Below, piece after piece: positions 24,601 through 27,600 of a stretch of 61,615 nt of DNA. The translations under genes and the position numbers were made by a program. This stretch comes from Planctomycetaceae bacterium. GTDB taxonomy: Bacteria > Planctomycetota > Planctomycetia > Pirellulales > PALSA-1355. The first letter of the stretch is position 1. Each line of letters starts with the position of its first letter. The DNA lies in the NCBI GenBank assembly GCA_005773095.1, contig SXHT01000107.1, positions 1 to 61,615 on the forward strand, read 5' to 3'. Below the pieces are notes generated by a model. That model searched no databases, was not told where the DNA came from, and saw nothing but the letters and a program-made list of their open reading frames with translations.

Positions 24601-27600
24601 GCAGAATGTGTTGTGCATTCTGAAGCTGCACGGCGCTTATGCTAGGTGGATCGTACACCCTCACGCGCCACGCGCTATCGACCCCCCACTGCCAGTCAAA
24701 GTCCAGCCCAATTCGGCGCAGGCCGACTTGAATTCTTTCCGCTCTCTCGATTGCCCTAGCGGCGAAAGGTGAAGACAAATCCATTTGACCATAAATCGAC
24801 CCATTAAAGGACAGGCCAGGTTCTCCAGGGATGAAATCGAAGTCTCTAAAACCTCGCGCCAGGTCGGTCCGGATGACGAGTCTGCCGTCCGCAAGATTGC
24901 TAGCACCGCGAAATTCGAGCAAGCCCAACTCATCATACAGCTGATAGCCCCTAATAACCCGAAGTTCGTCCTCTGGACTAAGCGTATTCCTAAATATCTT
25001 TGCTGCTGTATTCCTTTCGCCGATCGTCTCAAACACTCTGGCGTTCGCTCCTTGTCCCACGAATCTTAACTGCCCTTCTCGTGTGCCGACGACGATGTTC
25101 CTGCTCGCGGTGGCGATTTGGGTTCCGCTTTTTGACACGGCAGTCCTGACGGCTCGCGTCGCTGCGGCGGCCCCGGTTACGGTCGTGATGATATCCACGA
25201 TCTCCATTCCGGCATTGAAGTAGTCGCCGGCCGTTAGACTTTTCCAGCCGGTGGACTGAACCTTGCCGCTCGCATGGCCCAGTTTAGAACCAAGCTTAAG
25301 AAAGTGACTGACCACACCGAATGGGTCCAAAATTTGGACGATAGCTTTTCCGGGCAGGCCCTTGGATTTCACCCAACTGTCGAATCGATTGCCAAAATCG
25401 CCTTGTGAGTACCAATTCCACAATCCACGGCCGCTGCCTGCTTCCAATTCTTGCTGGCCGATGCGCTCTAAAGAATTCTGATAGTTCTGCTCCTCCTTTG
25501 CCTCCTGAGCGAGGGCCTTGTTGATCCTTTCCTGCATCATGCGAACTTGCGTTTGATGCGAGAGCGGCTGCATGAAGACGGCCTTCCGGATGTCCTGCTC
25601 CAGCGCTTGAAATTGGGGCGTGTGGACATACGGGTTGGGCTCGGGCACGAATTCCACGGGTATACCGGCCATCAAGGACGCGCCATCGCCTGTGTCCATC
25701 GTGCCGCCGGCGCCCTCCGTGCCACCGCTGACATTTCCCATGCCGCCCTGTGAGCCACCAAATGAGTTGGCTTCCGTCGGCGCGTGGCCGGTGAGATCGA
25801 CGTAGCGTAGCGGATTGCTGTAGGCATACAGGTAGCGCTGCAAGCTGGCGGGATTGTTGCTTTGGCCGAGGTACGAATCCTGGCTAAGGAAGGTACCAGT
25901 TTGACTGTCGTAGTAGCGGGCGCCGAAATATTGCAGACCGGTCTCTGGATCGAAGTAGTGTCCCGTGTATTGCAGCGGATTGTCCGACGAGCCGACCGTG
26001 TGTCGAACGGTTCCCCAAGCGTCGTAATCGTAGCTGACGCGGGTTTCGCCCGCGATGCTGGTCAAGTTGACGACGCTGCCCAGGCCATCCATCGAATAGA
26101 ACAGGCTGGTGCGATCGCCGGACGTGGGATCGACCTCGGTCCGCGAGACGAGGTTATGGCCGTGTTCATACTTGGCCGTGGTTTGACCGGCTGCGTTGTA
26201 CTCCAAATAGGCAGCACGCTGGTCATATAGATAGCGAGTTTCGCCGGTTGACGAAATCTTCTTTACCCGCATGCCGTCGGCGTTGTAGTCGAACCGGGCC
26301 ACGCCGCCGGATTCGTCGGGCGCTTCCACGAGTTGGTCGCGGATGTTGTAGCGGAAGTTCGCGACGGACACGGGCTGATCGACAGTCACGATCGGATTGC
26401 CGTTGACATCCAATTGAACGGAGATTTCTCCCGTAATCTTGAGCGTGCGATTGCCATTGGCGTCGTAATCGTAGGCCACACTTTCGGCTGGATTGACGTG
26501 GTCGATGACGCTGCGGTGGCGATTGATGCGATCGTAGTCGTACTGCCGATCGACCAGGTTTGTCGGTTCGAGCGGGTCCGTGCCGATCTCGCTAAGTCGC
26601 TTGCCATTCGCGTCGTAGGTGTAAGCCAGCTCACCGCCAGCTCCATAGGTGACGTGGACGAGCCGGTCGAGGCGATTGTATTCGTACGTGGTCAACTCCG
26701 GCGAGCCGCCATTGAAGTCGTGCTGTGTGGCAGTTTGGCTGAGCCGGTTGCCGTTGGCGTCAAACGCGTATTGGAAGCGAGATATGAGCTGGTCGGTAGT
26801 CGGCGGCACGCCCACCGCGCCAGCATGATTGACAAGGTCGACGAGCCGGTCGGCTCGATCGTACGAGAACTCGGCGACGACTCCATTGGGATAAACGGTG
26901 GACTTGAGTAGATCGTCGGGCCAGTACTCGTAGGTCGTGACGCCCGCCTCGCTGGTTACGGAAGTTAGCAGGTTTCGCTCATTGTAGGCGTAGCTGGTTG
27001 TATGGCCGTCCGGGTCTGTGGATGCGGTGCGATTGCCGTTGCGATCGTACTGGTAACTGATGGTCTTGTTGTCGTAGTTTGTTGTGCTCTCGAGGCGCTC
27101 GAGCAAGTCGAAAGAATACGTGGTGAGTTCCGTCACCGTGGCTGCGGCTGTATGCTTAACCTCGCGCATCGAGGTCAAATGATCGTTGTTGTCGTAGCTA
27201 TAGGTAACAGAATTCGGTTGATAGTCGAGCCCGCGTTCGGTCGCGTTGGAAAATGTCTGCGTCTCAACACGGTTGCGATAGTCATAGGTCATTGCGGTCC
27301 GCTGGCCTTTGGGATCGATGACAAGCGTGGTGTTGTCGGCCGCGTCATAACCGAGTTGCGTATGCAGGGCGGTAGCCTCATCGCCGCCTGCCAGGGGATA
27401 GAAGCCGTCGCCGCGGGGATTGCTGCCTCGAGTCACGCCGTTTGCAAGATCTCCCGGCACCAGGTGCTGGAACGTGTCTATCAACCGATTGCGGGCATCG
27501 TACTCATACGTAACCAGGTTGCCGTTGGCGTCCTGTTGAGCGATTTTGTTGCGGTTGGCGTCGTAGACATATCGCGTGATTCCGCCGCCTCGGAGCGATT

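Follow-up and report, generated by a model that had tools for sequence, protein, structure and literature searches.

A predicted Rhs cocoon with an internal variable cassette in a giant planctomycetal protein

Introduction

Can an Rhs cage whose autoproteolysis motif departs from the consensus, and which is followed by well over a thousand further residues, still cut itself, and what would it then carry? The question is raised by contig SXHT01000107.1 of a Planctomycetaceae bacterium (assembly GCA_005773095.1), whose full 61,615 nucleotides (nt) are called the window below. Its minus strand carries, at 21608..54460, one uninterrupted open reading frame (ORF) of 10,950 amino acids (aa; 1,162 kDa) plus stop, and an Rhs-associated core lies inside it. 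The first-pass annotation placed this core internally, with 1,391 aa after its motif, and both the position and the exact count hold. It went on to call the motif degenerate and to propose a cage that no longer cleaves, or cleaves differently.

In the Rhs field, the toxin is taken to be the very last domain of the protein and no larger than the volume of the cage allows; here, and in at least five relatives, the variable cassette is internal. The reading that we favour, with a joint probability of roughly 60%, is an Rhs cocoon that, as part of a planctomycete-type extracellular protein with many domains (1.16 MDa), would cleave itself, hold the internal cassette as cargo and carry a conserved C-terminal module on its outside.

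Results

Profile matches give the giant protein the N-to-C order LamG, nine CARDB domains, He_PIG/Big_9/cadherin domains, dockerin, beta-propeller, Rhs unit and C-terminal extension (all coordinates for its parts are on the minus strand). About 7,650 aa of adhesin-type domains thus lie ahead of the Rhs unit, and Pfam places a lactonase-type propeller some 550 aa upstream of DUF6531. The Rhs unit itself (aa 7655-9559, 25784..31498; 1,905 aa, 211 kDa) was delimited by Pfam and NCBIfam models and by matches to Rhs proteins in the PDB. It opens with DUF6531 (PF20148, aa ~7655-7727, expect value E=6.5e-16) and continues with YD/RHS repeats that fill ca 1,600 aa between aa ~7880 and 9480 (RHS_repeat PF05593 in Pfam, E=2e-94 over 16 stretches; TIGR01643 in NCBIfam, E=5e-65). 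It closes with the Rhs-associated core, an aspartyl autoprotease/plug at aa 9479-9559 (25784..26026), which aligns to the cores of 8h8a, Tse5, Tse15, TcC and SGS1 and matches TIGR03696 (Rhs_assc_core) over its full length (positions 1-76 of 76, E=3.8e-18, 65.8 bits with a cutoff of 32.5). Because of this full-length match, the upstream repeats and the DUF6531 domain, the motif is not a chance look-alike. With start domain, repeats and core all present, the giant protein contains a complete Rhs unit, and the cage, as read by these profiles, is complete. It is also large, about twice the usual size: a typical Rhs barrel is ca 100 kDa, while TcB plus TcC amounts to ca 270 kDa (PMC8765631).

The cleavage motif occupies aa 9514-9559 (25784..25921) and reads ARYYDSQTGTFLSQDSYLG...YAYSNPLRYVDLTGH. 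In the ORF translation its residues are spelled A9514-RYYDSQTGTFLSQDSYLGQSNNPASLQRYLYAYSNPLRYVDLTGH-9559, and the complete stretch, ARYYDSQTGTFLSQDSYLGQSNNPASLQRYLYAYSNPLRYVDLTGH, is identical to the earlier reading. The three aspartates are followed by S, S and L in place of Pro and the final motif residue is His, exactly as had been described (DS, DS, DL). Against the literal consensus DPxG-x18-20-PxxxxDPxGL, the protein thus has DSYLG-x22-PLRYVDLTGH. The proline of PxxxxD (P9550) and the Gly are retained, and other residues stand in place of the two DP prolines and of the final Leu. The spacing of the two aspartates is 27, as compared to the usual 21-24, owing to a 5-aa insertion (SNNPASLQR region) that marks a subfamily, being present in 14 of 47 sampled cores.

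What cleavage demands is known from characterised proteins. In RhsA, D1324 and D1346 are required and the cut falls after W1350 (PMC8765631); in BiTLP, R2103, D2116 and D2140 are required and the cut falls after L2144 (PMC13018210). The same Arg/Asp/Asp triad is found in SGS1 and the Tc toxins, and teneurins, which are without the last catalytic Asp, are not cleaved (PMC9935623). The giant protein has catalytic-type residues at all three positions, namely R9515 (25916-25918), D9528 (25877-25879) and D9555 (25796-25798), the Arg being the R of RYYD, 13 residues ahead of the first Asp. When aligned with characterised cores by phmmer, both aspartates find their equivalents in solved Rhs proteins: D9528 pairs with the QDP aspartate of 8h8a and D9555 with its IDP aspartate, a site that reads IAP in the cleavage-site mutant 8h8b. 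From the published cut positions, the scissile bond is predicted to be H9559|A9560.

To see how these positions vary in nature, a hidden Markov model (HMM) was built from the cores retrieved with the giant protein as bait, and 76 other distinct cores were aligned to it. The triad is nearly invariant: R at the column of R9515 in 73 of the 76, D at that of D9528 in 73, and D at that of D9555 in 72, the remaining four being alignment gaps. P9550 and G9558 are similarly conserved (P in 70/76 and G in 72/76). The columns in which the giant protein deviates are the variable ones. At S9519, after RYYD, P is found in 49 cores and S in 18; at S9529, after the first Asp, P in 60 and S in 9; and at L9556, after the second Asp, P in only 34, with V in 19 and L in 11. 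Expressed differently, the Pro after the second Asp is absent in 38 of the 76 cores (42 if gaps are counted), and that after the first in 14 (16 with gaps). Since so many cores are without one or the other, the literal DPxGL-type consensus is unreliable as a criterion of membership. The last motif residue varies as well, with L in 25, Y in 7, H in 4, R in 4 and others in the rest of 47 cores defined by a regular expression.

The particular combination found here is shared with relatives. Five of them (P0001, P0002, P0034, P0076 and P0151) have the VDLTGY ending and the 27-residue spacing in common, and two more (P0003 and P0005) pair DSYLG with DPTGH. The variant also occurs ahead of C-terminal regions of ordinary size, 366 aa after the site in P0002 and 375 aa in P0005. 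By alignment, the core is a member of a natural subfamily, QD[SP]YLG-x5 insertion-...NPLR[FY]VDLTG[YH], with the prolines replaced and the Arg and both Asp kept. As the Pro columns vary and relatives carry the same variant, the deviations are best seen as common natural variation at non-catalytic positions, and their combination as a signature of the subfamily. Given that the triad is nearly invariant and kept, that the prolines are variable, and that variant relatives have C-terminal regions of ordinary size, self-cleavage after H9559 is likely. The motif can thus hardly be called degenerate, a loss of cleavage finds no support, and nothing points to a different mode of cleavage.

After H9559 there follow 1,391 residues (A9560-A10950; 148.9 kDa), over which neither Pfam nor NCBIfam matched any family; a HINT domain was not found in the giant protein. 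The extension begins with a Gly-rich low-complexity linker, read directly from the sequence at aa 9560-9600 (25661..25783), and a linker resembling its 'TEAN...' type is also seen in P0001, P0076 and P0151. Next comes a pre-cassette domain at aa 9601-9784 (25109..25660), conserved with P0151 only (E=1.6e-6), a protein of 2,378 aa that represents part of an ortholog-like giant gene (locus L018; GCA_975198705.1, CDHKMB010000016.1). The variable cassette, a putative cargo or toxin, occupies aa 9785-9955 (24596..25108), and a zincin plus CBM-like (carbohydrate-binding module) jelly-roll module aa 9995-10410 (23231..24478).

Pairwise comparisons with three relatives show a conserved-variable-conserved pattern around the cassette, the intervening sequences differing among the proteins. 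With P0151, similarity extends over aa 9401-9758 (43% identity), ends there and restarts at aa 9990 (54% identity). With P0034 it ends at aa 9563 and restarts at aa 10013, and with P0076 the corresponding positions are aa 9566 and aa 9992. The cassette of P0076 is in turn homologous to the terminal domain of P0002 (E=5e-12). The composition changes here too: the G+C content at third codon positions (GC3), which averages 0.741 +/- 0.051 over 180-codon windows across the giant gene, drops to 0.57 at aa 9785-9960 and 0.47 at aa 9961-9994, among the lowest 3% of windows, and is 0.77 in the zincin/CBM module.

A word-based homology search with aa 9600-9960 gave nothing. An exhaustive HMMER search with the cassette region returned three weak matches only, which proved informative. 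Homologs of the cassette are found at the C-terminal end of the canonical Rhs protein P0150 (2,354 aa, core ending ...RDPRGL, 277 aa after the site), as the free-standing 161-aa protein P0152, and in the N-terminal parts of P0037 and P0075. The segment aa 9785-9955 is, on the sequence evidence, one that behaves as a polymorphic toxin cassette in being variable, compositionally atypical and terminal in a canonical Rhs protein, but it is internal. A pre-toxin domain of PT-TG type, which by eye the giant protein had seemed to share with P0002 and P0005, was dropped, BLASTP of the post-core region against these two proteins having found no match.

As to the nature of the cassette, it carries a Gly-loop-like motif, GQGANARV (aa 9802-9809), followed by AAK (K9821). 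In an AlphaFold2 (AF2) model with a predicted local distance difference test (pLDDT) score of 63.6, the top Foldseek matches are all protein kinases, including NleH1/2 and OspG, and they are weak (E 4e-3 to 2e-2, template modelling (TM) scores of 0.3-0.4). A profile search of the cassette against PDB sequences gave nothing, and a comparison of the three cassette homologs revealed no conserved catalytic-loop residues. We therefore use the term kinase-like with low confidence.

The module that follows, of ca 415 aa, is widespread, with more than 200 homologous protein clusters in Planctomycetes and Cyanobacteria, although no Pfam or NCBIfam model matches it. Its first half contains HELGHLAG (aa 10101-10108) and GEHLD (10143-10147), and PDAFEVALLD follows at 10307-10316. 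In 38 sequences the HExxHxxG pattern is invariant and a His ca 40 aa downstream nearly so. The AF2 model of the module (pLDDT 80.9) has a secondary structure compatible with a zincin fold in this half, and the second half is a jelly roll with Foldseek matches to the CBM4/16/27/28/61 folds; the CBM half dominated the ranking. A PDB profile search yielded only karilysin, at a non-significant E=0.28. Taken together, motif conservation and model suggest that aa 9995-10200 is zincin metallopeptidase-like. Among the homologs (P0030-P0149) the position of the module varies within large PKD/Big_9/cadherin proteins. It also exists without Rhs, and in many cyanobacterial members an NUC1-type endonuclease lies ca 200 aa upstream of it.

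The order of Rhs core, variable region and zincin/CBM module is also that of at least five further proteins, which come from different samples and show 37-54% identity: P0034 (locus L001), P0076 (identical to P0153, locus L049), P0151 (L018), P0081 and P0105. This recurrence shows the architecture to be real and heritable and not an assembly artefact. Loci L018 and L049 also have the upstream order He_PIG/Big_9/propeller/DUF6531 in common with the giant protein. In P0105, 982 aa follow the site. P0081 has a canonical core (DPSGF...DPSGL) and 1,322 aa after the site, with a PT-HINT domain (PF07591) between core and module, which suggests that the post-core region is processed in several steps. 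Among GTDB species representatives and JGI metagenome contigs there was no close relative, only generic Rhs cores of at most 50% identity.

Discussion

How much of the extension could be cargo is first of all a matter of volume. At 1.21 Å3/Da the 148.9 kDa would fill ca 180,000 Å3, while the cavity of BiTLP is ca 44,000 Å3, its cargos averaging ca 15 kDa and being fully enclosed (PMC13018210); enclosed Rhs segments and cargos span ca 90-230 aa (PMC9935623, PMC13018210). The first ca 400 aa after the core, at 43.6 kDa, are cargo-sized, at the upper end for a large cocoon. The remaining ca 1,000 aa cannot fit and must therefore lie outside. Wherever an Rhs structure has been solved, the chain after the core starts out within the shell, and in the bacterial examples it remains there (PMC13018210, PMC8765631). 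It is for this reason that we propose the linker, the pre-cassette domain and the kinase-like cassette as the cargo. The earlier claim of an unusually large cargo or extension is thus correct for the extension, which is far above any known Rhs cargo, and fails for the whole of it as cargo.

In the mechanism that we favour, the intact cocoon would cleave itself at H9559|A9560, and the ca 400 aa of linker, pre-cassette and kinase-like domains would sit in the shell. The chain would then leave through an opening in the shell, as it does in mosquito SGS1 and metazoan teneurins, and the zincin/CBM/beta-sandwich/dockerin-like part of ca 1,000 aa would fold outside. A second cut, releasing the cassette, may be made by the protein's own zincin, in the role that furin has in SGS1.

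Of the alternatives, a teneurin-like scaffold fares best. The core would then be a plug without autoproteolysis, the shell would play a structural part in a giant adhesin, and the C-terminal region would stay covalently attached on the outside. As teneurins show, a core that remains uncleaved and has its C-terminal domain on the outside is viable (PMC8765631, PMC13018210). The replacement of all three Pro and of the terminal Leu/Trp, the 5-aa insertion between the aspartates, the very large and clearly extracellular-type extension and the lack of a visible immunity gene would all fit. However, teneurins are without the last catalytic Asp (PMC9935623), whereas R9515, D9528 and D9555 are all present here, in columns that are at least 95% conserved. 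The Pro columns are naturally variable, the variant also occurs in proteins with C-terminal regions of ordinary size, and the post-core region is mosaic, compositionally atypical and toxin-cassette-like. Pfam, moreover, found no NHL, FN-plug or TTR domains. We regard the scaffold as unlikely.

A second option keeps the cleavage but leaves the cage empty, or nearly so. The linker would exit at once, everything from the kinase-like domain onward would be external, and the 149-kDa C-terminal fragment would be shed as a secreted enzyme or adhesin. The flexible, 40-aa Gly-rich linker directly after the cut site would suit such an exit, and the fragment resembles stand-alone proteins composed of an effector enzyme, zincin/CBM and Ig-like repeats, such as the cyanobacterial NUC1 proteins; the pairing of the kinase-like domain with the zincin module in P0037 and P0075 agrees with this. 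Against it stands that the post-core residues start inside the shell in all solved Rhs proteins (PMC13018210, PMC8765631) and that a canonical Rhs protein, P0150, has this kinase-like domain as its terminal cargo. It would also be left unexplained why a 211-kDa shell should be empty. This option appears to us rather improbable.

It was also considered that an assembly or sequencing error, or a recent loss of a stop codon, has joined an Rhs gene to a downstream gene. Related loci in which the giant gene is broken into several ORFs lend this some plausibility; in L018, a frameshift within the jelly roll accounts for one of the breaks, and the sequence can be read on in another frame. However, the ORF is open over 32.8 kb, with a GC3 that is uniformly high outside the cassette and the tail, and the same domain order is present in five or more independent proteins, obtained from different samples (37-54% identity), so that an artefact or decaying fusion is very improbable. 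Finally, that the entire 1,391-aa region is the cargo of an outsized cocoon can practically be dismissed, in spite of an Rhs unit of about twice the usual size (1,905 aa), since even perfectly packed it would need about four times the BiTLP cavity (PMC13018210), and its distal portion consists of well-folded domains of extracellular kinds (CBM-like, beta-sandwich, dockerin-like), which are found in proteins without Rhs as well.

It is important to point out what weighs against the self-cleaving, cargo-loaded cocoon. Regarding the cleavage, the neutrality of the Pro replacements is judged from natural variation; the 76 comparison cores, collected with the giant protein as bait, are not a random Rhs sample; the 5-aa insertion between the Asp pair could alter the geometry of the active site; and in SGS1, where the last Asp is displaced, cleavage is conditional (PMC9935623). 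Regarding the cassette, the kinase assignment is weak in view of the pLDDT of 63.6, the Foldseek E of ca 4e-3, the TM scores of 0.3-0.4 and the absence of a sequence-level PDB match, and the free-standing homolog P0152 is without the Gly-loop region. The kinase-like domain adjoins the zincin module in P0037 and P0075 as well, and because of this pairing the two may be an older unit and not a freely swapped cassette. No immunity-type gene was recognised downstream in the window, nor beside P0150 or L049: the nearest same-strand gene downstream encodes a DUF4291 protein ca 680 nt away, and beside P0150 there is no small conserved ORF, the next one being a large signal-peptide protein unrelated to the giant gene. 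Lastly, the related giant genes L018, L049 and L001 are split into three or four ORFs, which may reflect assembly error or gene decay, so that some copies may be decaying.

The favoured model can be placed among known systems. With the bacterial Rhs/Tc cocoons (P. protegens RhsA, 7q97; V. parahaemolyticus-type, 8h8a; Tse5; Tse15; TccC3/YenC2) the giant protein shares DUF6531, the YD shell and the core with Arg and two Asp, and, like bacterial Rhs toxins, it has a variable, compositionally atypical domain directly after the core. It differs in that 1,391 aa separate the core from the C-terminus, as compared to ca 100-400, that the cassette is internal, with zincin/CBM and adhesin/dockerin-like domains downstream and ca 7,650 aa of adhesin-type domains ahead, and that the motif is the DS...DL..H variant with the 5-aa insertion. 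PAAR, VgrG and TcA/TcB were found neither in the giant protein nor in the ten neighbouring ORFs scanned within the window. The small, encapsulable C-terminal toxin domain by which an Rhs toxin is classically recognised is absent, while the hypervariable post-core region is there.

The closest topological precedent is eukaryotic. In SGS1 (8fjp), ca 630 aa follow the core; the shell encloses ca 230 aa beyond the cut, the chain exits via a mid-shell opening common to teneurins, and the external Tox-SGS domain is removed by furin (PMC9935623). The giant protein resembles SGS1 in its Tc-like Rhs shell with catalytic Arg/Asp/Asp and in having a C-terminal extension beyond the proposed cargo. SGS1, however, relies on a protease in trans, whereas the extension here is twice as long and includes its own zincin-like domain, in a topology that we infer. 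Teneurins and BiTLP (9pt5/9ifo) are likewise large surface proteins that have adhesion domains at the N-terminus and a YD shell within (PMC13018210). In metazoan teneurins the C-terminal domain is external via the shell opening, and BiTLP cleaves at its Rhs core (PMC13018210). The giant protein differs from the teneurins in having no FN-plug, NHL or TTR domain in Pfam and in possessing the last Asp, which metazoan teneurins are without. Compared to polymorphic toxins with PT-HINT (PF07591), to which P0081 provides a link, its zincin lies downstream of the putative toxin, an unusual position for a releasing peptidase.

If the favoured model is correct, a topology first inside and then outside the shell is implied that is so far seen only in the eukaryotic derivatives SGS1 and teneurins, and the locus would offer a bacterial setting for asking how a chain exits a YD shell. 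The comparison of cores also cautions that the literal DPxGL consensus is a poor guide to cleavage competence, and the analysis has brought to light an extracellular module widespread in Planctomycetes and Cyanobacteria for which no family model exists.

One can speculate further that the cocoon is a breakable, cargo-loaded joint in a surface-tethered megaprotein. After the cut at H9559, the 1-MDa adhesin stalk and the cage would be held to the 149-kDa fragment only through the encapsulated kinase-like cassette. The C-terminal fragment would be cell-proximal, by way of the dockerin-like repeats here and of a hydrophobic/basic C-terminal anchor in the relatives. The chain would thread the shell opening, and the adjacent zincin would cut a second time, so that the toxin cassette is excised at both ends. 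Such a delivery logic would be distinct from type VI secretion, Tc and WapA-type Rhs systems, but the complete scenario of tether, threading and double-ended excision is doubtful as a whole.

Further Observations

The distal part of the extension consists of three more segments. Two beta-sandwich repeats of ca 110 aa each, at aa ~10420-10650 (22511..23203), are common to P0030 and P0063; they have no match in Pfam, and by eye we take them to be Calx-beta-like. Four to five dockerin-like Ca-loop repeats (DxDGFVGQDDLNxVLxxWG) follow at aa ~10651-10800 (22061..22510), with a weak match to the PDB dockerin 2y3n (E=0.055). The C-terminal tail, aa 10801-10950 (21611..22060), has a GC3 of 0.51, the gene's lowest, the windows starting at 10681 and 10741 being in the lowest 3%. 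The QSRFARF motif stands twice at its end (VQSRFARFFA-WVQSRFARFVA), and the tail is possibly a C-terminal secretion or targeting signal.

At the other end of the protein, aa 1-37 (54350-54460) are strongly basic, without the hydrophobic core of a signal peptide, and carry '...RRRPLFEILEDRQLLA'. This element seems akin to a motif that many large extracellular proteins of planctomycetes carry at the N-terminus.

The relatives end differently. In P0037, P0081, P0105 and L018 (17140-18084, second frame), spacers rich in G/S/N or Pro are followed by repeated 'D(D/G/S)FWPW(L/M)' motifs, and the proteins close with a hydrophobic 'WAWAG(L/F)L' segment and a basic tail, which are absent in the window's protein. 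This ending resembles a signal for C-terminal sorting or anchoring; ca 5 kb from P0105 there is an exosortase gene cluster (EpsH/EpsI).

P0002 (loci L020/L021/L022, JGI) is a 479-aa ORF that starts within an Rhs core and shares an overlap with the end of a 1,460-aa cadherin/Big_9 protein without an upstream YD shell. It is flanked by transposase genes and looks like an orphan or recombined module of an Rhs C-terminal region.

Turning to the gene neighbourhood, a 208-aa ORF at 54457-55083 (minus strand) lies directly upstream of the giant gene. It matches only the first half of DUF4915, and its stop overlaps the ATG of the giant gene (ATGA-type). Further upstream on the minus strand, 57402-59816 and 59913-61271 encode a MacB-type ATP-binding cassette (ABC) transporter (ABC_tran, MacB_PCD and FtsX) and an HlyD-family membrane-fusion protein. 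The first gene downstream of the giant ORF is that of the DUF4291 protein (20292-20927, minus strand, E=5e-60). Other neighbours are a fusion of low-molecular-weight phosphotyrosine phosphatase and SUI1 at 16537-17652 (minus strand) and an ARPP-1 family protein (PF20208, E=3e-98) at 17954-18901 (plus strand).

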